DNA of 64,000 nucleotides from an uncultured delta proteobacterium (GTDB lineage Bacteria > Desulfobacterota > Syntrophobacteria > BM002). Shown here piece by piece: positions 1 to 26,105 of the stretch. The position numbers and the translations under genes are program-made. The notes below the pieces were generated by a model that saw nothing but the letters and a program-made list of their open reading frames with translations, did not search any database and had not been told where the DNA came from. The stretch lies in assembly GCA_963712115.1 (NCBI GenBank), contig CAVQGX010000020.1, forward strand, positions 1-64,000, in the 5' to 3' direction. Numbering within the stretch: the first letter of the stretch is position 1; each line of letters begins with the position of its first letter.

Positions 1-76
1 GTGCGCCCGGCAAGATTCGAACTTGCGACCTACGGATTCGTAGTCCGGCGCTCTATCCGGGCTGAGCTACGGGCGC
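1..76 (-). tRNA. tRNA-Arg (anticodon ACG); 3' CCA cut by window edge
   Basis: Reverse complement GCGCCCGTAGCTCAGCCCGGATAGAGCGCCGGACTACGAATCCGTAGGTCGCAAGTTCGAATCTTGCCGGGCGCAC has an acceptor stem, anticodon loop CTACGAA and T-loop GTTCGAAT. Confidence 0.95.
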
Positions 77-11444: not shown

Positions 11445-11535
11445 CCCCCACGTTTTTCAATTGCCTTAACCTTACCTTATGTTATATTTTTGGACTGTTC
11501 GCCCCCGTCCATACTGTGCGGAAAAGGATCTATTA

Positions 11536-12177
11536 TTGGCTCGCATTGATGACTATAGAGAAGCCTTTCGGCTGGCCTGCCAGGAGCTTGCAACGGTAAA
11601 CTTACACCGTATTTGTTCGCTGAGCGGTGCTGTCTGCATTGAGGACAAAAACGGTAATCCGGCCATCAGCATACCTTTTATAAACCAAGATCATCTGATC
11701 CTTTTTGAGCCTGAAGTTGATGTGACTCTTCAAGGCAACGGTGAGCCGGTACCCATACCAGAAAAAATCCTTATTCTGCACTATCTGCTCACAGCCCGGG
11801 GAGAATCCTTGCAGCAAAACCCCATAACCTTCCGACAAGTGCCGGAAGGACCTTTCTATTACTCGGCTTTTATTAAAAGGGCTCTAGATCCATTGGCCCA
11901 GACTTTCGGTGGTGAGCCTCAGGGACTTCTTGACTGCGGCTATCAACTTGGGGCTGTTCCGGATGAATTAGGCGATGCCTCTATCACCCTAAAGCCACTG
12001 CCCCGTGTTCCGGTTACCTTTGTTATCTGGGGTGGGGATGATGAACTCCCCCCACAAGCTAACATCCTCTTTGACGAGTCCATAGTCAGCTACCTCCCCA
12101 CCGAGGACATAGCAGTGCTGAGCAGCATGATCGTCTATCGACTTATCAGGATCAAACAGAGACAGGGTCGCGGCTAA
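11536..12177 (+). CDS. DUF3786-family protein (probable TTG start; ORF track starts 11479)
   Basis: KILILHYL, FRQVPEG, PLPRVP..WGGDDELPPQANILFD..LPTED. Confidence 0.8.
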   Translation: MARIDDYREAFRLACQELATVNLHRICSLSGAVCIEDKNGNPAISIPFINQDHLILFEPEVDVTLQGNGEPVPIPEKILILHYLLTARGESLQQNPITFRQVPEGPFYYSAFIKRALDPLAQTFGGEPQGLLDCGYQLGAVPDELGDASITLKPLPRVPVTFVIWGGDDELPPQANILFDESIVSYLPTEDIAVLSSMIVYRLIRIKQRQGRG

Positions 12178-12435
12178 TCCCGGGAGTTGCTAACGACAGA
12201 GAGCAGCTAGAGAATAAGTCGGAAATCCTAAGGACGAAAAGAAATTGAGGAATTAGGGTATTGGGGAATTCACAATCAAGAAAGCCTTGGAGATTGCCAT
12301 GTCTCAGTCCCATAATCCCAAAATTCCTGAATCCCTGAATTCCCGAATTTTTTGGATTTCGAATTTGGTGGCGAAGACACTGCTCTGTGGTTTATCCTAC
12401 CCTGAGTGGTAGCTTTGACTTGGATAGGAGCATGT

Positions 12436-13209
12436 ATGAAAATTGCTATAAGTGGCAAAGGTGGTGTGGGCAAGACGACTTTGTCAGCTTTCCTCTGCAG
12501 ATGGTTTGGAGATCAAGGCCATAAGGTACTTGCCATTGATGCCGATCCAGCCACCAATCTTGGGACGGCCTTAGCCTTTCCCGGTGCCGATTCACTTCCA
12601 CCCATCACAGAAATGAAGGAGCTTATTGCTGAACGTACTGGAACCAAGCCAGGAAGCATGGGAGGTTTTTTCAAGCTAAATCCCAAAGTTGATGATTTAC
12701 CTGAAAAGATCGCCATCTCAGATGGTAATATCAGGTTGATGATTATGGGTGGAGTTCAGCAAGGGGGAACGGGCTGCCTCTGCCCTGAGAATGCCCTGCT
12801 AAAAACCCTTGTGGCCCACCTGATCCTCGGTCGGAACGAGGTTGTGGTAATGGACATGGCCGCCGGTTTGGAGCATTTGGGTCGCGGCACTGCTCAAGCT
12901 GTTGACCGTCTCATTATTGTGGTGGAGCCAGGCCGCCGGTCCATTGACGTGGCTCAGCGAATCAGAACTCTCGCTGGAGATATTGGTCTGAAAACCCTCT
13001 ATCTTGTGGGCAACAAGGTCCGCGGTTCCGGAGATCGTGAGTTTCTCCAGGAAGCCTTGCAAGGATTCCCATTCATCGGGTTCATTCCTTATGATGGCAA
13101 AATAATTGAAGCTGACCTCAAAGGAGAGTTCGCCGCCGATGTGAGCGACGAAACTAGGGCGGCTCTGGAGCAAATCGCCGCCAAAATAACCGCTGGTGAT
13201 GTAAGTTGA
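12436..13209 (+). CDS. cooC: CooC-type nickel-insertion ATPase
   Basis: SGKGGVGKTT, DADP, GCLCPEN, GLEHLGRG; GGAG RBS before ATG 12436. Confidence 0.9.
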   Translation: MKIAISGKGGVGKTTLSAFLCRWFGDQGHKVLAIDADPATNLGTALAFPGADSLPPITEMKELIAERTGTKPGSMGGFFKLNPKVDDLPEKIAISDGNIRLMIMGGVQQGGTGCLCPENALLKTLVAHLILGRNEVVVMDMAAGLEHLGRGTAQAVDRLIIVVEPGRRSIDVAQRIRTLAGDIGLKTLYLVGNKVRGSGDREFLQEALQGFPFIGFIPYDGKIIEADLKGEFAADVSDETRAALEQIAAKITAGDVS

Positions 13210-13246
13210 ACTGTCAAAACCCTCAGCTTAGAAATGCGAGATAACC

Positions 13247-14107
13247 ATGTTAAAAGGCAGAGACATCCCGCAGCAACTCTGGCTACCCTCCAGGTCGGGA
13301 GAGCAAAGACTGAGCGATATCCAAAACACTAGGGATCACCGCAACATTAACATCGACAAAGTGGGCGTCAAAAACATCCGCTATCCTATTACCGTCTTGG
13401 ATCGCACCCACGGTCGTCAACAGACGGTGGCCAATATCAACATGTATGTGAATCTTCCCAAAGAGTTCAAGGGAACCCACATGAGTCGTTTCATCGAAAT
13501 ACTCAATGAGTATCATGGGGAGATACACATCCGCAACTTCGCCACTATTCTAGAGACTATGAAGAACCGGCTGCAAGCGGAATCAGCTCATCTGGAAATT
13601 ACCTTCCCCTATTTTATTGAGAAGAAATCTCCTGTTTCGAGTGCCTCGGGGCTAATGGAGTATGGCTGCCGCTTGAGGGGATCTCTGAGCGCGGAGGATG
13701 GACACGACCTGGTTGCCGAGATCAGCGTCCCTATTACCACAGTTTGTCCCTGTTCCAAAGAAATTAGCGATTTTGGCGCCCATAATCAACGCGGGGTGGT
13801 GCGGCTGGCGGTGCGTTTCAAACGATTTGTCTGGCTTGAAGAACTTATCCAGGTTGTGGAAGCTGAGGCATCGTGCGATGTCTACTCTGTTTTAAAACGG
13901 CCAGACGAAAAGTACGTCACAGAGAAAGCTCACGATAACCCCAAATTCGTTGAAGACGTGGTTCGAGACATTGCCTCCAGGCTGGAAGAAGATCCCAATA
14001 TAACCTGGTATTCCGTGGACTCGGAAAACTTCGAATCCATCCACAATCACAGTGCCTACGCTTTTGTTGAACGGTATAAGGAAGAAATCTCCCAGGTGGA
14101 GGATTAG
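13247..14107 (+). CDS. folE2: GTP cyclohydrolase IB (start uncertain)
   Basis: KGTHMSRF, CPCSKEIS..GAHNQR, FESIHNHSAYA. Confidence 0.94.
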   Translation: MLKGRDIPQQLWLPSRSGEQRLSDIQNTRDHRNINIDKVGVKNIRYPITVLDRTHGRQQTVANINMYVNLPKEFKGTHMSRFIEILNEYHGEIHIRNFATILETMKNRLQAESAHLEITFPYFIEKKSPVSSASGLMEYGCRLRGSLSAEDGHDLVAEISVPITTVCPCSKEISDFGAHNQRGVVRLAVRFKRFVWLEELIQVVEAEASCDVYSVLKRPDEKYVTEKAHDNPKFVEDVVRDIASRLEEDPNITWYSVDSENFESIHNHSAYAFVERYKEEISQVED

Positions 14108-14317: not shown

Positions 14318-15472
14318 TTACGGTGCCTCCTTCAGTTCCTGGACCTTTTCAAAAAGTTTCTGGGCCCTGAGAAGATAGCTTTGCACCTGCTTGTAGTTCG
14401 GATCGACTTTGCTCACCAACTGCCACTGCTCGATGGCCTCTTTTAGCCTTTCCTCTTCAAAATGCTCAATTCCCTTGAGGTAGTGCACCTCTTTATAAGC
14501 ATCTTCCGCCCGTCTGATATACTCTTTGCAGGCAGTCCACTCGTCGTCATAACTCAAGGCTTCATAAAAGTGGTCCCTGGCCTTTAGGTATTCAGCCCGG
14601 TTGAAAAAAACCTCCCCCTGGCGGTAATGGGCCCAGGCCATATACTCTTGGACTTTTTTCCTCGAGGGATCAGTGTTCAAGACTTTCTGGAATTCATGGA
14701 GCGCTGCAAGATACTGTCCCTCCTCCAGCAAAGTCACTCCTTGTTCTTGATAAATTGCCACCGGGTCATAATCCATCTCTTGCTCTGAAGCCAGCGAGGG
14801 ATCTTCCCCAGACTTTTCGCCACCTTCTTGGTCCACCGCATAGGTGGTATCTTCTTGCAGTGGTGGTTCTGAGGATTGCTTCTCCTCGAGATCGCTGAAA
14901 AGCACCCCTTGGGTCTCCGGGATTATTAACTTCATGCCCGTGTAAAGCTTGGTTGCATCTTCCAGGTCGTTTACACGAGCAATGATCTCGAATTTACTCT
15001 GATCTCCATAATACTTCTCAGCTATAGCCGTGAGATACTCACCCTGCTTTACCTCGTGCACCACATAGCGACCAAAGGGTGGCGGTGGGGCGGGCTTTAG
15101 TAATTCCACCACCTCTGGAAAATCGGGCCTCAGCCGCAAAGCCACGAGGAATTCATGCCGGGCATTGGCGTATTTTCCCTGCTCATGGTAATCGAGACCC
15201 CTCTGGTAGTGTTTTTCAGCATCCTTACGGAGAGACTCTTGAAGCCCTTCCTTCTTGGCAACAATAACCGCCAGAGAAGCTTCGTAGAACTGCAAGGCCT
15301 TTTGTGGCTGGCCCTTGCGCTCGTATTCCAGGGCTCGCTCCAGCAAAACCCTTTCCAACCGCACCTCGGGCGGCTCCTTAGCTTCGGGCTTTTTTCTCAA
15401 AGCAGCACAGCCGCCCAGGCTAAGCGTCAGAATGGCCAGACAAAATAGAAGTTGGACCAACCTGTATTTCAT
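14318..15472 (-). CDS. TPR- and LysM-containing lipoprotein
   Basis: LGGC lipobox, TPR repeats, LysM HEVKQGEYLTAIAEKYYG..LIIP. Confidence 0.85.
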   Translation of the reverse strand: MKYRLVQLLFCLAILTLSLGGCAALRKKPEAKEPPEVRLERVLLERALEYERKGQPQKALQFYEASLAVIVAKKEGLQESLRKDAEKHYQRGLDYHEQGKYANARHEFLVALRLRPDFPEVVELLKPAPPPPFGRYVVHEVKQGEYLTAIAEKYYGDQSKFEIIARVNDLEDATKLYTGMKLIIPETQGVLFSDLEEKQSSEPPLQEDTTYAVDQEGGEKSGEDPSLASEQEMDYDPVAIYQEQGVTLLEEGQYLAALHEFQKVLNTDPSRKKVQEYMAWAHYRQGEVFFNRAEYLKARDHFYEALSYDDEWTACKEYIRRAEDAYKEVHYLKGIEHFEEERLKEAIEQWQLVSKVDPNYKQVQSYLLRAQKLFEKVQELKEAP

Positions 15473-16563
15473 TGCAGGTTTGCTCCACGAAAAAACTTCA
15501 CCAGCTGCTCAAATGAGTGTCCTGTCATAGGATTCATTACCTGATTCCTCCCCACCTTGAAAGGGTTGGCAAAGAAGGGGGTTATCCCGCGGGTCACGGT
15601 CACTCCGCCCCGATAACCGGCCTCAAGTGCCATGGAGACGACCAGATTGTTCCAGCGCCCGTAAGGATAGGCCAACCAGACTGGATTTTGCCCTAAATGC
15701 TTTTGAATGAGCTCACGAGGGACCTGTAATTCTCGCTCGATCCTCTGGAGATACTTGGCCTGACTCTCCCCTTTGCGCTTGAGAGTGAGATCAGCATGAG
15801 TGATGGTGTGAGCTTCTACTTCAAAGCCTGCTTGCGCCAGCTCCCTTAACTGCTCCCAGGTCAAAGCATTCGGGCTGTTGTCAATAAAATCAGTATAGAT
15901 GAACAGGGTCGCGGTGAAATTGTGTTTCTTTAGTATGGGGTATGCTAGGTCGTACACCGACCGATAGCCGTCGTCTATGGTTATGGCCACAGCTTTGCGG
16001 GGCAGAGGCTCTTGATAGTCAATGAACTTCAACAATTCTTTCATGTTGACGGCTCGATATCCTTCCTTTTTCAGAAAGGCCATCTGCCGGGCAAACTCAT
16101 CTACTGGCATACAAAGGCTGTTGGTGCATTGTTCACTGAAATGGTGGTAGGTAAGGACGGAAACTACCTGATAACCATCTGCAAAAAGGCCACCGGGATT
16201 TACTGGTCGCAAGGGGATTACCAACACTTGGCCTGGCTCGAGGGCCACCAGTTCGTTTGCCTCCACGATCATCCAGACCTTGTCCGGATCTCCATAAAAT
16301 CTGCGAGCAAGGTCGGTAAGGCGGTCGCCTTTCTTGACCACATAAACTGCCACTGTCTCTGCCTGGAAAAGTGCACCACCCTTCTCTTTTATGAGAGAAC
16401 TTTTGTCTTCTCCGCTCCCTGGACGGAAACCACTTGCCCCCTCAGGGGTCAACCAAAGGCAGAGAAGGGTAAGCAGCAAGGCAGCTATTCTACCTGCTCC
16501 TCTTGCCTGTTTAATGCTCTTCCGCCTTCTGCTCCAGGTGTGCTCTTCGGTCGAAAACCTCAT
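15469..16563 (-). CDS. LysM + CE4 polysaccharide deacetylase, exported
   Basis: LysM YVVKKGD; TIDDGY, HTITH, AYPYG NodB-type motifs. Confidence 0.88.
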   Translation of the reverse strand: MRFSTEEHTWSRRRKSIKQARGAGRIAALLLTLLCLWLTPEGASGFRPGSGEDKSSLIKEKGGALFQAETVAVYVVKKGDRLTDLARRFYGDPDKVWMIVEANELVALEPGQVLVIPLRPVNPGGLFADGYQVVSVLTYHHFSEQCTNSLCMPVDEFARQMAFLKKEGYRAVNMKELLKFIDYQEPLPRKAVAITIDDGYRSVYDLAYPILKKHNFTATLFIYTDFIDNSPNALTWEQLRELAQAGFEVEAHTITHADLTLKRKGESQAKYLQRIERELQVPRELIQKHLGQNPVWLAYPYGRWNNLVVSMALEAGYRGGVTVTRGITPFFANPFKVGRNQVMNPMTGHSFEQLVKFFRGANLQ

Positions 16564-17923
16564 ATATTTTCACTGGCTCCTTCCTGCCTTTGACCTCCAT
16601 CGCTCCCCGCGACCGGAAAGTAAAGTCTGAAATATGAGCCACCTTTACATAGGTCTGCTCGCTGATAAGGATCTCATCGGGCCCGGCCAGATCAGTGAGA
16701 CGAGATGCCACATTGACGTTGTCTCCAATCACTGTATATTCCATGCGTTTACTGGAACCGAGGTTTCCCGCTACCACTTCCCCGGTGTTTATGCCAACCC
16801 CGACCTGAATATGATCGGCAGTTGCTGGCAGCATCTGGTTTAATTTGGGCAAATGGTGACGCACCTCCAATGCTGCCTGCACAGCCGTCTGTGCGTGGTT
16901 GGGATCAGGCATCAAAGCCCCAAAGACCCCCATAACCGCATCGCCTACGAACTTGTCAAGATAGCCGCCATACTGAATGATGATATCGGTCACCATGGTA
17001 AAATAGGAATTAAGTAGATCCACAACCGCATCGGGATCACTTCTTTCCGCCATAGTGGTAAAACCTCGTATGTCCACAAATACAATTGTAGCCTCCAAAC
17101 GGATTCCCTTCATCCATTCATCGTCTGGACTAGCTAGAATGCGTTCTACGATCTCTGGTGTTACATAGCGACCGAATGAGGTCTGAATTCTCTCTTTTAA
17201 GCGCAAGTCCTCAGCCATTCGGTTAATGGCCTTGCCCAGATCACCCAGTTCATCGTTGCGGAAAAGGCTCACCCGGTAGGCAAAATTACCCTTCCCTATC
17301 TCTTCAACCGCTCCCACTAGCCTTTGAATTGGGCGGGAAAAATAGAAGCTCAACACCATACTCATGGCAATACCAGTTATGGTGATGACAAGGGTCATCA
17401 TCAGAATAAACAACTTGGCCTTGATAATACTCGCTTCGATATATTTCTTGGTCAAACAGAGATGCACTTCACCTATCTTGAGCCCCTGATACAACACAGG
17501 GGTAGAAAAAAGAAGGCGGTTTTCCTCTTTTTCCTGATAACTCCGGAGTTGCAAGCCATTTGTTTCAAATACCAGCTGGCTATCTGACGGTAGCACATAG
17601 GTACTACCCACCTGATTGATGTCACTGTGCGCCTGAATGATTCCGTTGCTGTTTAGAATAAGGGCAAAGACCACCTCTTCATTCTTGGCAATGTCCGAGA
17701 CCAACTGATACAGGGGCAGCTCCGCTTCTTCCAAAAGATCTTCAGGGCTATTCCTCGCGGCATAGCTGGACATGGTGGTACCGAACTTAATCAACTGATT
17801 GGTGAACTGAATTCTTTGGCGTTTGAGAATACTAGTGCTGATGGTGGCCACGATGGCAAAAATGGCCAGTGTTGCCAGGAAAGAAAATTTGGCAAAAATA
17901 GGTATGCGTAACTTTTTGAACAA
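16511..17923 (-). CDS. Membrane class III adenylate cyclase with periplasmic sensor and HAMP domain
   Basis: Two TM segments, RNDELGDL..NRM HAMP, FVDIRGFT, DKFVGDA, YTVIGDNVNVASRL. Confidence 0.92.
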   Translation of the reverse strand: MFKKLRIPIFAKFSFLATLAIFAIVATISTSILKRQRIQFTNQLIKFGTTMSSYAARNSPEDLLEEAELPLYQLVSDIAKNEEVVFALILNSNGIIQAHSDINQVGSTYVLPSDSQLVFETNGLQLRSYQEKEENRLLFSTPVLYQGLKIGEVHLCLTKKYIEASIIKAKLFILMMTLVITITGIAMSMVLSFYFSRPIQRLVGAVEEIGKGNFAYRVSLFRNDELGDLGKAINRMAEDLRLKERIQTSFGRYVTPEIVERILASPDDEWMKGIRLEATIVFVDIRGFTTMAERSDPDAVVDLLNSYFTMVTDIIIQYGGYLDKFVGDAVMGVFGALMPDPNHAQTAVQAALEVRHHLPKLNQMLPATADHIQVGVGINTGEVVAGNLGSSKRMEYTVIGDNVNVASRLTDLAGPDEILISEQTYVKVAHISDFTFRSRGAMEVKGRKEPVKIYEVFDRRAHLEQKAEEH

Positions 17924-17961
17924 GGTCGGAGCCCCTTATCTTCATCAACTTCCGAAAAGAT

Positions 17962-17990
17962 GCATAGCGCATAGCGCATAGCGCATAGCG
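17962..17990. repeat. (GCATAGC)n heptamer tandem repeat; related inverted tracts at ~19325-19415, ~45825-45895, ~54710-54795
   Basis: gcatagcgcatagcgcatagcgcatagcg read directly. Confidence 0.7.
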
Positions 17991-18120
17991 AAAAAATCCA
18001 AACTCCGAAGACCTCTTTCCATGATTTAAGACCACGATGCAGTTTATATTAAGGTCCCTAAGTTGCTTACTAGTATGCGTTTTTCTTTGTCTTGTCAAAC
18101 GCTCTGCGCTTTGCGCTTTG

Positions 18121-19227
18121 CTAGCGGATCTTAAGGGTCGCCAAAGATAACAAAGCAAGAATACCAGCAACAATCCACAATCTAATTACAACCTTGGTTT
18201 CGGCAAAACCCCTGTGCTGCAAGCTATGGTGGAGTGGTGCTCGATAAAAGATTCTTCTTCCCAGCCAGCGCACCCCGATCTTGTCTTGAATTTGTGACGT
18301 CAGCGCCTCAGTTAAAAAAAGGCCGCCTAGGAGGGGAAAAAGCAACTCTTGCTTGAGCAATACGCTTAGAACCGCCACCGTGCCCCCAATGGCAAGAGAA
18401 CCAGTATCACCCATAAATATCTGGGCTGGATATGCATTATACCAGAGAAACCCCAGGCCTGCGCCAATAAAGGCGGAAACAAAAACTGCCAACTCTCCCG
18501 CTCCCCGCAGGTAGGGATATTGTAGATAGCCCGCATAGATGGTATTGCCCATGACGTAGGCAAAGACGCCTAAGACTCCAGCCACAAATATTGATGGGGT
18601 AATGGCCAAACCATCAAGTCCGTCAGTGATATTCACTGCATTGGCAACCAGTAAAAGGAAAAGAAAAATAAAGAGCCCATAGAATAGACCCAGGTCCAAG
18701 AGGGGTCGCTTAAGGAAGGGTACATACAGCTTGGTGGCAACCCCCGGTTCCACCGGAGAAAGAGGCCCCAGATAGACCAAGATGAATGCCAAGCCAAATA
18801 ATCCTTGCAAGACAAGCTTAGTTACCTCTCCTAGACCTTCTTCTCCGCTGCCACGTGAACTCTTCAGCCAGTCATCCCAGAAGCCGATACCACCGAACCA
18901 GAGAAGGGTAGCGAGACTCAGGAGTAAGAAGGTATTGGTAAGATTGGACCATAGCAATATGGAGATTGTCATGGCCACAATCAACAGCACCCCACCCATT
19001 GTGGGTGTGCCAGCCTTGTCAAATGCTGACGGAATACCCGTTTCCCTTACCCGATCGAGAAAGTTGCGTCGGTGCATAGCGCGAATGAAGCGGGGACTCA
19101 AGAGAAAAACAATTAGCACCGCGGTCAATGCTGACATAATCGAGCGAAAGCTCAGATAACCCAAAAGTCTAAGAAAACCTAGTGTCTCAATCTGACTATG
19201 AAACCATTGTCCAAGGTGGTAAATCAT
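18121..19227 (-). CDS. mraY: Phospho-N-acetylmuramoyl-pentapeptide transferase, divergent paralog
   Basis: KAGTPTMGG, WDDWLK, NAVNITDGLDG, IFMGDTGSL, APLHH. Confidence 0.9.
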   Translation of the reverse strand: MIYHLGQWFHSQIETLGFLRLLGYLSFRSIMSALTAVLIVFLLSPRFIRAMHRRNFLDRVRETGIPSAFDKAGTPTMGGVLLIVAMTISILLWSNLTNTFLLLSLATLLWFGGIGFWDDWLKSSRGSGEEGLGEVTKLVLQGLFGLAFILVYLGPLSPVEPGVATKLYVPFLKRPLLDLGLFYGLFIFLFLLLVANAVNITDGLDGLAITPSIFVAGVLGVFAYVMGNTIYAGYLQYPYLRGAGELAVFVSAFIGAGLGFLWYNAYPAQIFMGDTGSLAIGGTVAVLSVLLKQELLFPLLGGLFLTEALTSQIQDKIGVRWLGRRIFYRAPLHHSLQHRGFAETKVVIRLWIVAGILALLSLATLKIR

Positions 19228-19452
19228 TTTTTTTCCCCATTATCTGGTAGGACAGTAAATGTCTCACTGTCTCGCAATCCCTTGGGATGTGTAACCATAC
19301 GTCAGTGGTCCGTTTTGGCTCACTGCCTTCGCCGCATAGCGCCAGGCGCAGAGCGCATAGCGTCTTGTCACCATCTAATAATAACCCGCTTTGCGCTATG
19401 CTCTATGCGCTAAGCGTCTTTAGCAATGGACTCGATATTGTGCGACCTCGGC

Positions 19453-22400
19453 TTAGTACCTCTGCTCCTGATCGTCCTCCCCCCGGCAAATTGCGTGGAG
19501 TCTACGGTAGGTCTCTTTAATGTCGAAGTAGGAGCGGAAATCTGTGGTTGTAATAATAAACCGCGAAATCTCATTGAGAAGCCAATCCAAATCTAGAACT
19601 ATACCCCTTTTCGCCAACATTGTGACAGCCCTCAGAGCCGCCTCGCGGACCTGCCAGTAGTGGTGTTCCTTCAAACCCAGCAATGCCTCTGCCACCTCTC
19701 GATCTTCGCCAACAGCTCCTAGGGCCAATACTACCTCTCTCACAACCTCAAATGATCGGTCCTTGATAAGTGTCAGGAGTTTTTCTGTCACAGCCTGCTT
19801 TTGCAGGAGCTCTTGAGCGAAATGACCCATGATTCTTGCCGCCTGCGCCCGGACTTCGTAGTAATTATCGTCAAGGACCTCAAAAACTCTAGCTTCCACC
19901 TCGGGGCCCCACTTGTTCAATATTTGCAGGGAGATTAGAATATTGCGTCGGATGAAGCCCACCTGACGATAGTCTCCACCAAAAAGCCTCTGCAATCGAC
20001 TTGCCGGAGTCCGATCCGCCAAGAGATGAAGCAGTGTAGAGAGTTTCTCTTCATGTTTGAGAAATCCTATTAGCTTAACCCCCAGATTGCGCTCTGCCCA
20101 ACTGGGCGAGGTCAACAGGGAGGCAGCTCGATGCCGGTAGTAATCCAAGTCGTCAGCATCGGGAATAGCCTTTCCAGGGTCATATTCCTTTGGACCAGCT
20201 TGCCAGAAACTCCTTAGCTTCACCAACAGCTCATTGTCACCCAAAAGCGGCTCCAAATCCTTAACCTCATCAATTGAACTTCTGTATATTGGGCCACCTT
20301 GAATCTCTGCAGCTATTTGCTTTACCGCATCGTGATTCATGAAAGCACGGGAGCACCTACCCATCTCCTCCAACCTCTGGGGTGCATCTAGCAGAGAGAT
20401 GATCTTTGTTGCCAGCTTCTGGCCTTCAACCTCCTCCAGCAACATTCCCTCTTCCATAACGGTGTCTTCGAAGATCAACTCCGCAGCACCCGCCCTTTTC
20501 ATAGCCCGAGCATTCATAACCTGATGATTACCTGGCAAATTGGCTTTGGGAATAATGAGAGCCGATTTGCCCACGGCTGAGATCTCGTTAAGACTGCCTG
20601 CACCTCCGCGGCAAACTATCAGGTTACTGACCGCGTAAATGTCTCCAATATTATGGAAATAATCTTGAGCGTAGTAAAATGTTTCGATTTGCTCCCGCTC
20701 ATGCTCACTGTACCTGCGCTGCAACCTTTCAGCAGTGTCCTCCCAGGCATGGTATTCGGGAGTTTTGATTAAACCTACACCGTGGATGATAAAAATGTCA
20801 CTTTTTCTGGTCAAAAGATGACCGAGTGCGTCCACCAGGGCACGATTAATGGTCCGAGCACCCTGTGATCCACCAAAAGCGAAAACCACCTTTCTCCCGT
20901 CAGGTATCTGAAATGGCATGGCCTTGCCTCTGTCCGAGCTTAACATGCTGGTGACCGAATGGCGCACCGGATAGCCCACCACCACGCCATTTTCATTAAA
21001 GAAACTCTTAGTTTCAGGAAAGGTAAGTAGAACTTTGTCGGCACGACGTCCTATTAGCTGGTTCAATTTTCCGGGAACGCTATTCTGCTCATGAATGAAA
21101 ACCCGGGCCCTGCTCATGCCTAGCAAACGCATCAAAGTATTGGCGAAGATGACCGGGGCGCTAACATACCCTCCTGTGCCTACTATCGTATCTGGGCGAA
21201 AGGTTGCAATATAATAAAATGACTGCAAAATTCCTCCTAATAAAAGAAGGGCAAAACGGACTAAATCCAGACTGGGTCGAAAACCGGGAAAGCCATAAGC
21301 CCACACATAACGAATAGGATAGCCGGCGCGGGTGACGATTATTGACTCGGCCTTTCCTCGCATCCCCACATATAGAAAGCGGACATTCTGGTCCTTCTGC
21401 TTGATAGCTTCAGCTATGGCAAGTGCAGGGTTCACGTGTCCACCGGTTCCTCCTCCAGTTAAAATGACCCGCTCGATGGAGCCAGTCCCCCTGCTTTGAA
21501 ATCGCCCCCAATATCCGAGGGTCAGGAAAAAAACAAACATGCCAACAGCAGCGGCAAGCACGAGTCCAGCAACTTCGCCCCAATTAAAGATCGCCTGCGG
21601 CAGGCTTGCCAGAAAAGACGTTTCCACCAGGCGAGGATAAAGTTTCCAGGCAGTCAAACCACCCGCCCCACTGGCAATGGCTGTAAACATAAGGGTGTCA
21701 CCAAGATCTTGCCAGCCAATAGCTGCTTGACCTCGACGACGCAATTCTAAATTGAAGGCAGCGAAGAGTACTGCCCCATTAACAGTAAAAGCTATGGAAG
21801 AGGCTAGGGCCAGCCCCCCATGCCTGAGTGAGGTGCGCACTAACAGTAGACTCAACCCCACATTCAAAAAGGCGGCTACCAGCGAGGTGTAAAGGGGAAT
21901 TTGATTCTTGGCTAAGGCCGGGTAGACTCTGCTGTAGAGATTCCAAAACCCCATGCCCAAGAGACCCAAGGCATAGAAAGCAAAGGCCAAAGCAGTCAAA
22001 TTGACTGATGACCTGTCAAAAGCGCCGCGCTGAAAAACCACTGAAGTAATGGGCCCTACCAAGGCCAGAACAAATACGGTGAGGGGCACCATGCAAATGA
22101 TATTGTAGCGGAGGCCTTTTATAACTGTCTTTCGGAACCCTTGCCAGTCCTCCCTCTGTACCTGGTCATTAAGTTCAGTGACACCTGCCCTACCCACAGC
22201 CAAGCCTATGATGGAATTGGGCAATTGCACTAGCCTTTGGGCAAAGTAGAGGGCAGCAATGCTACCCGGCAAGAGAAAAGAGGCAAGAACTCGGTCGACA
22301 ATCTCCACTGTCTTGTTAGCCACTGACTGCCCGAAGATCCAGCCCGACTGCCGCCCTACTTCTCTTAGTTCCGGCATGGACTCTTTTGAATCTGTAGTAT

Positions 22401-23055
22401 ATCCCATGCCGAGCGCGCTTTTTCGCGAAGATCTAATCAACACCGGAATCTGGATGAAAAACTGCAGAATCCCTCCCAGGACAAACCCCACTGCCATGCT
22501 GTAGATGCCGAGATATGGCTTGAGGGCAATGATTCCTACAATCACTCCGACGCTGAGCATTATCGGCGCCAGGGCATAGGTGACAGTGGCATCCAGGAAA
22601 AGCAGAAGTCCACCCACATAAGATGCCAGCCCTATGGCCACCATAAAAGGAAGAATAAAGTAGGTCATTACCTCCGCTTGGTGGAACTCACTGGCAGCGA
22701 GACCGGCGCCGATTAGTCTGACCAATTTCGGGGTGAGAAGATAGAAAATTCCCATGATGACCAAAAGGAGCAGCATCATGAGGTTAAATACCCTAGAGGC
22801 CAGAATCCATGCCCGCCTGTATTCCCCGGCAGCTATCATTTGGCGGAAAGGAGGCAAAAAAGCCTTTTCCACCATGTCTTCTCCTAGAATGCGTCGAAAA
22901 AGGGTGGGGATGGTGAAAGCGATAGCAAAAAGGTCAGTGGCTCGAGTGGCACCAAAATAACCAGCAATAACCATCTCCCTTACGAATCCAAACATTCGGG
23001 AGACCAGGTTACCCTGCACCATATCAAAAAATTTTCTAAAAAAGGACTTCCTCAT
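19453..23055 (-). CDS. MurJ flippase - MurG glycosyltransferase - HEAT-repeat fusion protein
   Basis: N-terminal SRMFGFVRE/FRRILGE MurJ; central GGGTGGH, HEQN, GGSQGA, HQVMNA MurG; C-terminal YEVRAQAA/FEVVREVV/WQVREAA HEAT-like repeats; one uninterrupted ORF. Confidence 0.88.
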   Translation of the reverse strand: MRKSFFRKFFDMVQGNLVSRMFGFVREMVIAGYFGATRATDLFAIAFTIPTLFRRILGEDMVEKAFLPPFRQMIAAGEYRRAWILASRVFNLMMLLLLVIMGIFYLLTPKLVRLIGAGLAASEFHQAEVMTYFILPFMVAIGLASYVGGLLLFLDATVTYALAPIMLSVGVIVGIIALKPYLGIYSMAVGFVLGGILQFFIQIPVLIRSSRKSALGMGYTTDSKESMPELREVGRQSGWIFGQSVANKTVEIVDRVLASFLLPGSIAALYFAQRLVQLPNSIIGLAVGRAGVTELNDQVQREDWQGFRKTVIKGLRYNIICMVPLTVFVLALVGPITSVVFQRGAFDRSSVNLTALAFAFYALGLLGMGFWNLYSRVYPALAKNQIPLYTSLVAAFLNVGLSLLLVRTSLRHGGLALASSIAFTVNGAVLFAAFNLELRRRGQAAIGWQDLGDTLMFTAIASGAGGLTAWKLYPRLVETSFLASLPQAIFNWGEVAGLVLAAAVGMFVFFLTLGYWGRFQSRGTGSIERVILTGGGTGGHVNPALAIAEAIKQKDQNVRFLYVGMRGKAESIIVTRAGYPIRYVWAYGFPGFRPSLDLVRFALLLLGGILQSFYYIATFRPDTIVGTGGYVSAPVIFANTLMRLLGMSRARVFIHEQNSVPGKLNQLIGRRADKVLLTFPETKSFFNENGVVVGYPVRHSVTSMLSSDRGKAMPFQIPDGRKVVFAFGGSQGARTINRALVDALGHLLTRKSDIFIIHGVGLIKTPEYHAWEDTAERLQRRYSEHEREQIETFYYAQDYFHNIGDIYAVSNLIVCRGGAGSLNEISAVGKSALIIPKANLPGNHQVMNARAMKRAGAAELIFEDTVMEEGMLLEEVEGQKLATKIISLLDAPQRLEEMGRCSRAFMNHDAVKQIAAEIQGGPIYRSSIDEVKDLEPLLGDNELLVKLRSFWQAGPKEYDPGKAIPDADDLDYYRHRAASLLTSPSWAERNLGVKLIGFLKHEEKLSTLLHLLADRTPASRLQRLFGGDYRQVGFIRRNILISLQILNKWGPEVEARVFEVLDDNYYEVRAQAARIMGHFAQELLQKQAVTEKLLTLIKDRSFEVVREVVLALGAVGEDREVAEALLGLKEHHYWQVREAALRAVTMLAKRGIVLDLDWLLNEISRFIITTTDFRSYFDIKETYRRLHAICRGEDDQEQRY

Positions 23056-23421
23056 GAGGCTCCCGCGTCCCTTACGATCTCGGCTAAATTTCGCCGGGGG
23101 TAGATTCGAAAGTCCGCCTATACCTCTAAGTAGCCACGGACGTGCAGATGCACCGACAGGTCGACAGGGAAGCCGGCAGGAGGCAGGGGCAGCTGGCAGG
23201 TATTTATAAGAGTCAAACTGTAAGGTATTAAAATATCCGCATCTTAACTAGGGTGGAGATCATTTAAACACTTGGAGATTGAAATCTAGCTGCCTGCTGC
23301 TAACTGCCAGCTGGGAAAGAGCGCTGCGCGCTCTTTGTTCTCCTTCTTGCCCCGTCAGTTTATAATCATTCTCTGTTTCCTCGCTGAGACAGTCTCCGGC
23401 TGTTTGAGCCAGCCATTCCCT

Positions 23422-24069
23422 TTAGAAACTCGCCTCCCAGCAAGAGAGAACCTCCTGCAGGGCAATTGCCCCAACACGCAAGATCTTGGGAGGCCAAGTG
23501 GTTACGTCGGCAATTGTAGAGGCTTTACCACCGGGCGTCAAGCCAGCATCAAGAATGGCTTCCAGGTCCTCTCCCAGCTGGGATAAAACTTCTTCACAGC
23601 TTCGGCAGCTCGGGGATCCCGATCGATTGGCACTAGTTGCAGTAATTGGTCCGCCTACCGCCTGGACCAAGGCTTGGGCAACGGGATGAGAGGAGATTCT
23701 CACAGCTATCTTGCCGGTACCGGCGGTGAGGTTGGTTGGCAGCTTTTTTCCTGCAGCGCACACCAGGGTGAGGGGGCCGGGCCAGAAAGTTGCCGCTAAA
23801 TGACGTGCTTCGCGGCTAAGGTTTTCTATCCAATTATCGAGTTCGTTTAAATCCGCAACCAGAATGCTGAGGGATTTGTGAACCGCTCGTTTTTTAAGCA
23901 GATAAACCCTAGCAATAGCTTTGTAGTCTGTAGCAAGGGCAGCCAAGCCGTAGAAGGTCTCAGTGGGAAAAGCTACCACGGTTCCTTTGCGAATGAGCCG
24001 AGCCGCTTGCCCTATGGCTGCTTCGCTCTGGGTAGTATCTTTGTCCACTTTTAGTATAAGTGGCATCAT
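23422..24069 (-). CDS. tsaC: Threonylcarbamoyl-AMP synthase (YrdC/Sua5 family)
   Basis: FPTETFYGL, FWPGPLT, ATSANRSG. Confidence 0.93.
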   Translation of the reverse strand: MMPLILKVDKDTTQSEAAIGQAARLIRKGTVVAFPTETFYGLAALATDYKAIARVYLLKKRAVHKSLSILVADLNELDNWIENLSREARHLAATFWPGPLTLVCAAGKKLPTNLTAGTGKIAVRISSHPVAQALVQAVGGPITATSANRSGSPSCRSCEEVLSQLGEDLEAILDAGLTPGGKASTIADVTTWPPKILRVGAIALQEVLSCWEASF

Positions 24070-24080
24070 TAACTACTATA

Positions 24081-24238
24081 AATTGAACCACAGAGATCAC
24101 GGAGCGACGCAATTTCAGATTGTTGATTGTAGATCGCAGATTGCCAAATCCTCACCTGCCATATTGTCTCAATCTACAATCTTAAATCTAAAATCTCAAA
24201 TATCCCTTTGTGCTCTCCGCGTCCTCTGTGGTTCAATT
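24081..24238. repeat. ACCACAGAG-bounded palindromic element with GATTGTA/CAATCTA tracts
   Basis: 15-bp TIR AATTGAACCACAGAG / CTCTGTGGTTCAATT; inner tract shared with 26109-26240 (inverted) and 36335-36458. Confidence 0.75.
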
Positions 24239-24252
24239 CTTAGTTGTTTAGG

Positions 24253-24792
24253 CTAGGGCGTGGGCATCTTCTCCTGCAGGGTTGCGGCTTTCTCGGCAAC
24301 CTTCTCGGCCAGTTCTTCCTTGTAGTGCTCCAGTCTCTCTTGCAACTCGCTGTTAGCCACAGCCAGTATTTGCGCTGCCAGAATTGCTGCGTTTTTAGCT
24401 CCAGCTTTTCCCACAGCCATGGTGGCCACCGGCACACCTGCCGGCATCTGAACAGTTGAGAGCAATGCATCCCATCCAGTCAAGGGGGAAGATTCGATTG
24501 GGACACCAATTACCGGCAGGCTAGTTTCCGCCGCCAGGACCCCAGCCAAGTGAGCAGCCCCACCAGCGCCTGCTATAAGCACTTTAAGACCCCTTCGCTT
24601 GGCTGATCTGGCGTATTCGGACACCCTCTGTGGTGAGCGATGGGCCGATGCCACCGTTATTTCAGCAGGGATACCAAAATTAGTCAGAACCTCAAAAGCC
24701 TCCTGCATTACCGGCAGGTCGGAATCACTACCCATGATAATACCCACCACTGGCGCCTGAGATGACTGATTGGATTGCTTGCTGGCCTGCAT
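24253..24792 (-). CDS. purE: N5-carboxyaminoimidazole ribonucleotide mutase
   Basis: IIMGSDSD, SAHR, AGAGGAAHL, VQMPAGVP. Confidence 0.96.
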   Translation of the reverse strand: MQASKQSNQSSQAPVVGIIMGSDSDLPVMQEAFEVLTNFGIPAEITVASAHRSPQRVSEYARSAKRRGLKVLIAGAGGAAHLAGVLAAETSLPVIGVPIESSPLTGWDALLSTVQMPAGVPVATMAVGKAGAKNAAILAAQILAVANSELQERLEHYKEELAEKVAEKAATLQEKMPTP

Positions 24793-24797
24793 CTGGG

Positions 24798-26105
24798 CTA
24801 CTCCTTACCTATGTCGCTGCGATAGTAGATGCCGTCGAACTGCACCTTTTCCATCTCAGAGTATGCCTTCTCCCTGGCGTCCTTGAGGGTTTTACCCCGA
24901 CTTACTATACACAGTACTCGGCCACCGGTAGTGATAAATTGGCCCTCATCGCCAAACCCCGTGCCGGAATGGAACACCTGACAGTCGGGGTCTATCTTAT
25001 CAAGTCCCTCAATGGGCAAACCGATCTTGTAGCGTTCGGGATATCCCTTATACCATCCCTTCTTGCCTTTTGTTCGCCCGCTCACAGCAATTAGGCACAG
25101 CCGATAGTCCGAATTCCACCTGGGGGTAATTTCATCCAGTCGGCCCTGGACGATGGCTTCAGATACATCTACTAGGTCGTTCTCCATTCGCGGTATTATA
25201 ACCTGAGCCTCAGGATCTCCCTGACGAATATTGATCTCCAACACATAGGGAGTTATGCCATCTTGCTCTTCCATCAACATCAGGCCTGCGTAGAGAATCC
25301 CCTTGTAAACGATGCCTGTTTTTTCCCTAAAACCCGCAATGAGGGGCTGGACCACTCGATCCATAATGATTTGGGTCATCTCGTCGGTGAGCCAGGGATG
25401 AGGAGAATAAGCTCCCATACCTCCCGTGTTTTTCCCTTCGTCGTCATCCCGGGCTCTCTTGTAGTCTTGGGCTGCCACCATGGGTAAAACCGAGTTGCCG
25501 TCAGTGAAACAGAAAAAGGAGAGTTCTCGACCGTATAGCCGTTTTTCGATTTCCACTCTATTGCCTGAATCACCGAATATGCGCTTTTCCATCAGCAGGT
25601 GTACGGCATCCTCTGCCTGGGCGACATCATCGCAGACCAGTGAGCCTTTGCCTGCGGCCAAACCATCCGCTTTTACCACCACTGGATAGCCGACACTGCG
25701 TACGTAGTCTCGGGCTTTGTCGGGGTCATCAAAGATTTCAAAATCCGCCACCGGAATTCCGAGGTCTCGCATGATTTCCTTGGCATAACACTTGGAAGAT
25801 TCTAGCAGACTTGCAGCTCTGCTGGGACCGACGATGGCCAATCCTTTCTCTTCAAAAAGATCTACAATCCCGGCGGAGAGCGGGCTTTCCGGTCCCACAA
25901 AAGTCAGATCGATTCTCTCCCGATCCGCAAATGCAACCATCTCCTCTATGGTCCGGGCATCAACGCATTCCGCTGTTTGCGAAATCCCGGCATTGCCGTG
26001 AGCCACATATAGTTGTTTCACTCGAGGACTTTGGGAAAACTTCCAGGCGATAGTATGATCGCGTCCACCACTGCCGATGACAAGTACTTTCATGCACTCC
26101 CCCAC
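24798..26105 (-). CDS. purD: Phosphoribosylamine-glycine ligase
   Basis: GSGGRDH, KADGLAAGKG, NTGGMGAYSP, GDPE. Confidence 0.96.
   Translation of the reverse strand: MGECMKVLVIGSGGRDHTIAWKFSQSPRVKQLYVAHGNAGISQTAECVDARTIEEMVAFADRERIDLTFVGPESPLSAGIVDLFEEKGLAIVGPSRAASLLESSKCYAKEIMRDLGIPVADFEIFDDPDKARDYVRSVGYPVVVKADGLAAGKGSLVCDDVAQAEDAVHLLMEKRIFGDSGNRVEIEKRLYGRELSFFCFTDGNSVLPMVAAQDYKRARDDDEGKNTGGMGAYSPHPWLTDEMTQIIMDRVVQPLIAGFREKTGIVYKGILYAGLMLMEEQDGITPYVLEINIRQGDPEAQVIIPRMENDLVDVSEAIVQGRLDEITPRWNSDYRLCLIAVSGRTKGKKGWYKGYPERYKIGLPIEGLDKIDPDCQVFHSGTGFGDEGQFITTGGRVLCIVSRGKTLKDAREKAYSEMEKVQFDGIYYRSDIGKE

Follow-up and report, generated by a model that had tools for sequence, protein, structure and literature searches.

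What does it mean when a bacterial genome encodes a MurJ-like flippase, a MurG-like glycosyltransferase and a HEAT-repeat tail in one polypeptide, with mraY as the next gene? This arrangement is found in a 64,000-nucleotide stretch of DNA (the window) at the start of contig CAVQGX010000020.1 in assembly GCA_963712115.1, an uncultured delta proteobacterium of the class Syntrophobacteria (BM002), and an earlier note made from the sequence had read it as a self-contained second lipid-II-like pathway. Our analysis makes a different answer very likely, namely that the locus encodes the relocated and partly fused housekeeping MraY/MurG/MurJ machinery for lipid II, with the HEAT repeats serving as a docking domain. 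The 1200-residue open reading frame (ORF) described in the note is indeed an open frame with Pfam domains in the claimed order, and the module has the following layout.

19453 to 23055, reverse strand: fusion gene murJ~murG~HEAT, 1200 amino acids, stop codon included, no internal stop in the ORF translation
21496 to 23055, reverse strand: MurJ flippase domain, residues 1 to about 520 (PF03023, TIGR01695)
20281 to 21477, reverse strand: MurG (GT28) domain, residues 527-925 (PF03033 and PF04101)
19456 to 20280, reverse strand: C-terminal HEAT-repeat solenoid, residues 926-1200 (HEAT_2, PF13646, and AlphaFold2 model)
19228 to 19452, no strand: spacer of 225 nucleotides separating the fusion gene from mraY; GCGCATA-like heptamer repeats in inverted orientation at 19334-19428
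18121 to 19227, reverse strand: mraY, 368 amino acids (TIGR00445), the next gene after the fusion on the same strand

The genome comprises 4.9 Mb in 70 contigs and is 94.4% complete with 6% contamination; the window lies on its contig C20 (in the following, G numbers denote genomes, G000 being the window's own, and f numbers are family labels of genomes). A genome-wide search with TIGR00445 found one mraY above the cut-off, that of the module (304 bits, followed by matches of 50 and 49 bits), and TIGR01133 found one murG, the fused one (224 bits, followed by 38 and 29 bits), which is also the sole match better than E 1e-9. Although the note had called the MraY divergent, it is an ordinary member of its family (304.2 bits against an NCBIfam equivalog cut-off of 192.05). 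The dcw (division and cell wall) cluster is located on contig C52 and reads mraZ-rsmH-ftsL-ftsI-murE-murF-murD-ftsW-murC-murB-ftsQ-ftsA-ftsZ. In this cluster murF and murD overlap and ftsW and murC are about 90 nucleotides apart, which leaves precisely mraY and murG absent; their usual places (murF-mraY-murD and ftsW-murG-murC) are not occupied, and both genes are found on C20 instead. Since the genome shows no other mraY or murG and the two are just what the dcw cluster is short of, a second pathway is largely refuted. The placement of mraY away from the dcw cluster, as the note had it, is borne out by the Pfam and NCBIfam assignments at 11.4-30.1 kb of the window, which include no mur ligase, ftsW or ftsZ. 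The note had also considered that the locus might hold the genome's only mraY, murG and murJ genes, in which case it would be a rearrangement; this is so for mraY and murG but not for murJ, for which TIGR01695 found a standalone copy on contig C49 (359 bits) in addition to the fused one (284 bits).

Contamination as the source of the standalone murJ on C49 was rejected, as the same gene is found in genomes of the same genus, including the single-contig genome G002. The MraY-family matches of about 50 bits come from two 417-residue ORFs (G000:C40:63454-64032 and C39:15512-16093), which probably encode other polyprenyl-phosphate sugar-phosphate transferases (GT4 family) rather than MraY.

Both halves of a MurG are present in the fusion, a GT28 N-terminal domain at residues 530-676 (PF03033, 97.7 bits, Pfam cut-off 26.2) and a GT28 C-terminal domain at residues 723-913 (PF04101, 80.9 bits, cut-off 22), and the domain aligns to the solved MurG structures 3s2u (E 6e-30) and 1f0k (E 8e-29). 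Compared with these two, it retains the GGTGGH of the G-loop, GGYVS, HEQN, GGSQGAR, the glutamate of GAGSLNE, and HQxxNA with the glutamine and asparagine of the UDP-N-acetylglucosamine site, and these motif positions are invariant in an alignment of 60 sequences. All eight motifs quoted in the note are where it had placed them, five of them in the MurG part (GGGTGGH at residue 534, GGYVS at 628, HEQN at 655, GGSQGA at 728, and HQVMNA at 844) and three in the MurJ part (SRMFGFVRE at 19, FRRILGE at 53, and AQRLVQLP at 272). The last strongly hydrophobic segment of MurJ, its last transmembrane helix, spans residues 495-513 or so, and the first strand of MurG begins at about residue 529; a linker of some 13 residues thus ties MurG to the membrane. 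In E. coli MurJ both termini are expected to be cytoplasmic, and a cytoplasmic MurG at the C-terminus is therefore topologically possible. The AlphaFold2 model of the full-length fusion has a mean predicted local distance difference test (pLDDT) of 82.2 and a predicted template modelling score (pTM) of 0.54, with low-confidence linkers at residues 521-525 and 927-932.

The MurJ domain is likewise well defined. It is matched by PF03023 at residues 30-465 (262.5 bits, Pfam cut-off 27.4) and lies above the NCBIfam cut-off of 235.55 for TIGR01695 (281.3 bits on the protein and 284.3 in the genome search), and residues 15-450 align to solved chains of E. coli MurJ (E about 6e-35). In E. coli, the charged cavity residues R18, R24, R52 and R270, plus D39, are essential. 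Their alignment equivalents in the fusion are R20, R26, R54, R274 and D41, and these five residues are retained in 27-28 of 28 fused homologues. Within a set of 41 genomes (the window's own and 40 relatives), we selected five relatives in which an earlier homology search had seen no second murJ; in all five (the single-contig genomes G013 and G018, and G010, G008 and G024, which are 94-96% complete), TIGR01695 found the fused MurJ only, and the alternative flippase Amj (PF10997) was found in none of the five. That some relatives have the fused domain as their sole MurJ and lack Amj argues that it would be a working flippase. In two genomes of the same genus the standalone murJ contains an in-frame TAG (G009:C5:20312-21556 and G011:C1:1381872-1383119), which, together with the five relatives in which no standalone gene was found, suggests that the standalone murJ is being lost where a fused one exists.

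The fused MurJ appears to have an ancestry of its own. Its closest standalone MurJ proteins are 40-46% identical and carry names that include Latescibacteria, 'Deltaproteobacteria', Clostridiales and Delongbacteria metagenome-assembled genomes (MAGs), whereas it shares only 31% identity with the standalone MurJ of its own genome. In a quick tree, the fused MurJ domains form one clade (support 99) that is nested in a clade of such standalone proteins and separate from the resident murJ genes. This tree, in which several rows are of deviant composition and one (canon_f5_G030, a wrongly extracted ORF with a branch length of 7) was disregarded, was used solely for the fused domains being one clade separate from the resident genes. 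The same tree, with its long branches, places the standalone murJ genes of f1 and those of f3, f5 and f6 in different clades, and these may not be orthologues.

The fusion is a conserved feature of the relatives. A near-full-length fused frame is present in 21/41 genomes, including the single-contig genomes G002, G013 and G018; four genomes (G004, G011, G016, and G022) have the gene split over contig ends or in two places, 14 have MurG~HEAT only, and two have no match to the locus (G028, 68% complete, and G036, 93% complete). By family, the triple fusion is found in f1 (22/22, counting G000), f4 (2/3) and f2 (1/1, split), and families f3, f5 and f6 have MurG~HEAT alone. The fusion gene of G006 contains an in-frame TAA. 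A database search added 47 clusters with MurJ and GT28 (P0003-P0049; 54-98% identity), several of which are named 'MurJ' by NCBI and come from MAGs of Syntrophobacteria or 'Deltaproteobacteria', and 69 clusters of about 685-755 residues with GT28 and HEAT only (P0054-P0122; 50-55% identity), with names including Syntrophobacteraceae and Desulfosoma. In the public sequencing runs, contigs bridge the MurJ-MurG junction without gaps in 4/4 runs from four studies, and the MurG-HEAT junction in 2/4 runs among the matches listed; two of the four runs are metatranscriptome libraries, whose contigs cover the gene but are not proof of transcription.

Gene order is conserved to a similar degree. In the window's class, mraY lies directly 3' of the HEAT-coding end in 14/14 loci, with tsaC upstream in 13/14 and the complete purD-purE-tsaC order in 12/14. 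Exactly one mraY above the cut-off was found in 37/41 genomes, the four without a match being 68-93% complete, and a comparison of coordinates showed that this mraY adjoins the 3' end of the MurG~HEAT or fusion gene in 36 of the 37 (in G008 the two are on different contigs). No canonical mraY/murG pair was found in the single-contig genomes G002, G013 and G018.

The third part of the protein is a helical repeat domain. HEAT_2 (PF13646, cut-off 27.7) matches residues 1058-1143 with 48.4 bits in the full protein and 53.8 bits when the domain is scanned alone, the AlphaFold2 model of the domain alone is an entirely helical solenoid (pLDDT 89.9, pTM 0.86), and 21 sequences from three groups share 20 invariant columns, including a GGDxxxVGFxRR block. 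Because HEAT invariably ends the protein and its gene is nearly always followed by mraY, the HEAT domain was tested against MraY. The predicted HEAT-MraY complex obtained a score of 0.48 (best of three controls, 0.00). In a benchmark whose counts apply only roughly here because the run used alignments of our own making, 116 of 157 solved complexes attained that mark, as did 2 of 215 mismatched pairs; scores up to 0.60 were seen in just 18 of the 157 solved complexes plus both mismatches that passed. At least 89% of the contacts agree between prediction runs, and the partner pLDDT is at least 81. The complex prediction lends weak support, no more than a lead, to MraY as the partner of the HEAT solenoid, which would be a protein-docking module.

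Outside the triple fusions, the two-domain MurG~HEAT proteins give an indication of how the fusion may have arisen. In 65 of the 69 database clusters the N-terminus is a hydrophobic stretch of about 20 residues with RRWRR after it, immediately ahead of the first MurG strand, and this stretch aligns with the fourteenth transmembrane helix (TM14) and W516 of the fusion. Such an anchor is present in 9/9 loci of the class and absent in 6/6 loci of f34 and f50, two other families of the phylum. Among the matches listed in a search of 301 genomes of the phylum, which has 157 further rows, full-length MurG~HEAT outside the class was found only in f34 and f50 (10 genomes), and the remaining MurG matches do not extend past the MurG domain (query residues about 3-340 of 415), mostly in open frames of about 350-450 residues. 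The distribution, which is not rooted, would fit a history that began with an anchorless MurG~HEAT beside mraY, as in the two other families, and passed through a MurG~HEAT with a single transmembrane anchor, as in the window's class; in the window's family and two others, this anchor would then have been replaced by, or have given rise to, a 14-helix MurJ of a different MurJ subfamily.

The same three domains are also combined in distant lineages. A full HMMER scan covered 1.84 billion representatives at 50% identity, and the best 150 were examined. These contain 10 long proteins that are colinear with the fusion (31-55% identity) and 12 proteins of 1191-1333 residues with three matched stretches in which MurG comes first. 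Pfam assigned MurJ followed by GT28 in 5/5 colinear proteins tested, with HEAT_2 at E <=1e-4 in 2/5, and GT28-MurJ-HEAT in 6/6 permuted proteins tested (clusters P0247, of 1310 residues, P0249, P0254, P0265, P0273 and P0293). Some members of the colinear cluster P0250 (66 members) are MurJ of 'Candidatus Aminicenantes' according to NCBI. Again mraY follows: it lies directly downstream in 3/3 permuted loci fetched (L058-L060) and, in the one Aminicenantes-type locus fetched (L061), directly after the fusion with an overlap of 8 nucleotides. Two domain orders imply at least two independent fusion events. We tentatively propose, as a possibility that goes well beyond the local reading and is considerably less certain, that MurG, MurJ and HEAT form a lineage-spanning lipid II assembly line that has been fused recurrently, at least twice, and whose HEAT tail is docked on MraY.

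Two further observations concern these distant proteins. In the permuted ones, about 140 residues between MurG and MurJ have no domain assignment. The scan also returned other combinations, a MurJ-HEAT protein without MurG (P0348, 771 residues) and a pentapeptide-repeat-MurG-HEAT protein (P0299, 985 residues).

How well does the reading as relocated housekeeping machinery stand against other explanations? That the locus is a self-contained second MraY-MurG-MurJ pathway, producing a variant peptidoglycan or another undecaprenyl-linked glycan beside the canonical one, would be in line with its position outside the dcw cluster, a MurG domain that scores below its equivalog cut-off, a second murJ in the genome, and the genes for a LysM-deacetylase and a LysM-TPR protein downstream. 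Yet the genome shows no other mraY or murG for a canonical pathway to use and the dcw cluster misses exactly these two, 37/41 genomes have a single mraY which in 36/37 adjoins the fusion or MurG~HEAT gene, MraY is of equivalog level (304 bits), and the donor and acceptor motifs of MurG are those of the solved enzymes, leaving this explanation very improbable. With it falls part of the channelled initiate-elongate-flip module that the note had envisaged: a coupled module is still the best mechanistic reading, but not as a second pathway or for a variant glycan. A further explanation is an artefact of assembly or frameshift, both raised in the note, or of gene calling that joins separate murJ, murG and HEAT genes, for which one could point to the 70-contig draft with its 6% contamination, to the in-frame TAA in G006, and to the four relatives with a gene split at contig ends or in two places. 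A frame that is continuous at full length in 21/41 genomes, three of them single contigs, the same architecture in 47 independent database clusters, and gap-free contigs over the MurJ-MurG junction in all four runs from four studies reduce this to a negligible chance.

A rival that deserves more attention, although we still regard it as unlikely, sees in the MurJ domain chiefly a multi-pass membrane anchor or regulator of MurG, with flipping performed by the standalone MurJ or another protein. It draws on the class relatives with a single transmembrane helix at the same position, on the better-scoring standalone MurJ in this genome, and on the separate clade of the fused MurJ in the quick tree. 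Against it, the fused domain is the sole MurJ match in 5/5 relatives tested (two of them single contigs), with Amj found in 0/5, scores above the TIGR01695 cut-off, and keeps the equivalents of R18, R24, D39, R52 and R270 in 27-28/28 fused homologues.

Several results weigh against the housekeeping reading or parts of it. The standalone murJ outscores the fused one (359 vs. 284 bits), and the fused MurJ therefore need not be the main flippase in this organism. The MurG domain reaches 220.6 bits with TIGR01133 (224 in the genome search), which is below the equivalog cut-off of 250.25, a threshold that was passed in 9/14 control genomes. In the full-length AlphaFold2 model the individual domains are credible but, with a pTM of 0.54, the model does not establish their mutual arrangement. 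In run X4, a contig of a relative with about 90% identity has a joint at the MurJ-MurG junction (21473/21645) with unknown letters between the two sides. The permuted fusions show no conservation at the column of E. coli R270 (R in 0/12, K in 1/12), which may be an alignment error caused by approximate cut points. In f34, mraY does not adjoin MurG~HEAT (0/2 loci). As for the proposed docking, the HEAT model resembles only generic alphaRep, armadillo and HEAT repeats (Foldseek against PDB, TM-scores of 0.5-0.6, and ESM Atlas), and the fold thus gives no clue to the partner; moreover, the score of the HEAT-MraY prediction falls in a band where wrong predictions outnumber correct ones unless the pairing was already probable to begin with.

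If the locus is the relocated housekeeping machinery, its parts would act in the following order. MraY would make lipid I, and the MurG domain, held at the cytoplasmic face of the membrane by its short linker, would add N-acetylglucosamine to give lipid II. The MurJ domain of the same polypeptide would then flip lipid II, so that the substrate could be handed over inside the fusion, and the HEAT solenoid would dock a protein, with the neighbouring MraY as the favoured partner. Should the broader assembly-line proposal also hold, a single physical complex would carry out lipid I synthesis, glycosylation and flipping. The fusions would then be natural Rosetta-stone evidence for a physical coupling of lipid II synthesis and MurJ flipping and would offer a ready-made single-chain target for a MurG-MurJ(-MraY) structure.

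The module is flanked by further genes and features, assigned by Pfam and NCBIfam or, for the tRNA, by Rfam.

24798 to 26105, reverse strand: purD, upstream neighbour
24253 to 24792, reverse strand: purE, upstream neighbour
23422 to 24069, reverse strand: tsaC, upstream neighbour (the three genes together span 23422 to 26105)
16511 to 17923, reverse strand: HAMP-adenylate/guanylate cyclase, downstream neighbour
15469 to 16563, reverse strand: LysM-polysaccharide deacetylase (PgdA/PgaB-like), downstream neighbour
14318 to 15472, reverse strand: TPR-LysM protein, downstream neighbour
11479 to 14107, forward strand: trio of DUF3786, ParA/MinD-like ATPase and FolE2 (GTP cyclohydrolase IB), syntenic with the module in 3/4 f1 loci
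1 to 76, reverse strand: tRNA-Arg (ACG), the sole RNA-family match in the window (Rfam hit at 2-76)

The cyclase and the LysM-deacetylase follow the module in 4/4 f1 loci and 0/10 other loci, and together with the TPR-LysM gene they may be a peptidoglycan-modifying and signalling appendix of the module. Rfam gave no match in the region of the fusion and mraY, and a scan for promoters and terminators at 17800-24300 returned consensus-level matches only, with no clear terminator in the spacer ahead of mraY. The spacers flanking mraY on both sides contain runs of GCGCATA-like heptamers in both orientations (17962-17990, 18100-18122, 19334-19362, and 19387-19416), which form inverted repeats (e.g. 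19335-19360 with 19403-19428). The whole genome has 45 runs of at least three GCGCNNN units, and at 17962-17996 and 19328-19392 metagenome contigs accumulate and break off, as a dispersed short repeat would lead one to expect.

In model bacteria, the transfer of lipid II from MraY/MurG to the flippase and the formation of a complex have been argued largely from localisation and two-hybrid data. Here, synthase and flippase are covalently fused, in two domain orders and in distant lineages, each time with a HEAT tail of one kind and with mraY next in line. Such fusions are comparative evidence that synthesis and flipping are functionally coupled and that MurJ is the flippase, and they mark HEAT as an accessory domain of the lipid II machinery that is conserved but uncharacterised. 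They also illustrate that a pair consisting of just mraY and murG can drop out of the dcw order, strongly conserved though it is, and that automatic labels such as 'MurJ' or 'glycosyltransferase' hide the status of these proteins as the only MurG of their organisms. The MurJ-MurG-HEAT fusion is apparently undescribed, widespread in uncultured lineages and mis-annotated as plain MurJ. Our full-text searches returned no paper on MurJ-MurG, MurG-MurJ or MurG-HEAT, and the titles and abstract openings of papers that mention MurG or MurJ fusions or domains describe no natural MurJ-MurG fusion, although subscription papers or supplements could alter this novelty. Queries that paired MurG with HEAT repeats led, among the matches listed, to eukaryotic HEAT proteins (mostly ATR/ATM kinases) and no bacterial MurG, and those on dcw and murG to no mention of Syntrophobacter among the matches listed.

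Compared with known systems, the module is familiar in its components and unusual in their assembly. The separate MurJ, MurG and MraY of model bacteria (solved MurJ 6cc4 and 7wag, MurG 1f0k and 3s2u) belong to the same families and act in the same reaction order, and the essential arginines of MurJ and the nucleotide- and acceptor-binding motifs of MurG are kept in the fusion. Unlike in model bacteria, MurJ and MurG form one polypeptide with about 275 residues of HEAT, MurG is tethered by a transmembrane segment rather than peripheral, and mraY and murG are located outside the dcw cluster. Natural Mur chimeras have been surveyed before (MurE-MurF, MurG-MurC, MurC-MurB, MurC-Ddl, MurD-FtsW, and MraY-MurG) and, as fusions of consecutive or neighbouring peptidoglycan genes, were read as signs of multi-enzyme complexes (PMC10214165). 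They join genes that are adjacent in the dcw cluster, and the accessible part of the survey names no MurJ-MurG or HEAT-bearing chimera; sequences from unidentified species were excluded there (PMC10214165), and it is such species that supply most MurJ-MurG-HEAT fusions. MglA/MurG2 of actinomycetes, described as an alternative lipid II synthase that can substitute for the dcw-encoded MurG (PMC8092295), is likewise of the MurG type and has its gene outside the dcw cluster, the difference being that the organism studied here has no dcw-encoded MurG at all. Further parallels are the proteins found in this study. The permuted MurG-MurJ-HEAT proteins have the same three domains, with HEAT last and mraY next, but MurG precedes MurJ and the identity is 30-41% per domain. 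The two-domain MurG~HEAT proteins are without MurJ and have one N-terminal hydrophobic helix or none: the anchorless ones of f34 and f50 are 34-40% identical to the fusion, with mraY adjoining in 4/4 f50 loci, and those of the window's own class, with their single transmembrane anchor, share 50-55% identity over MurG and HEAT and occupy the same purD-purE-tsaC-[gene]-mraY context.

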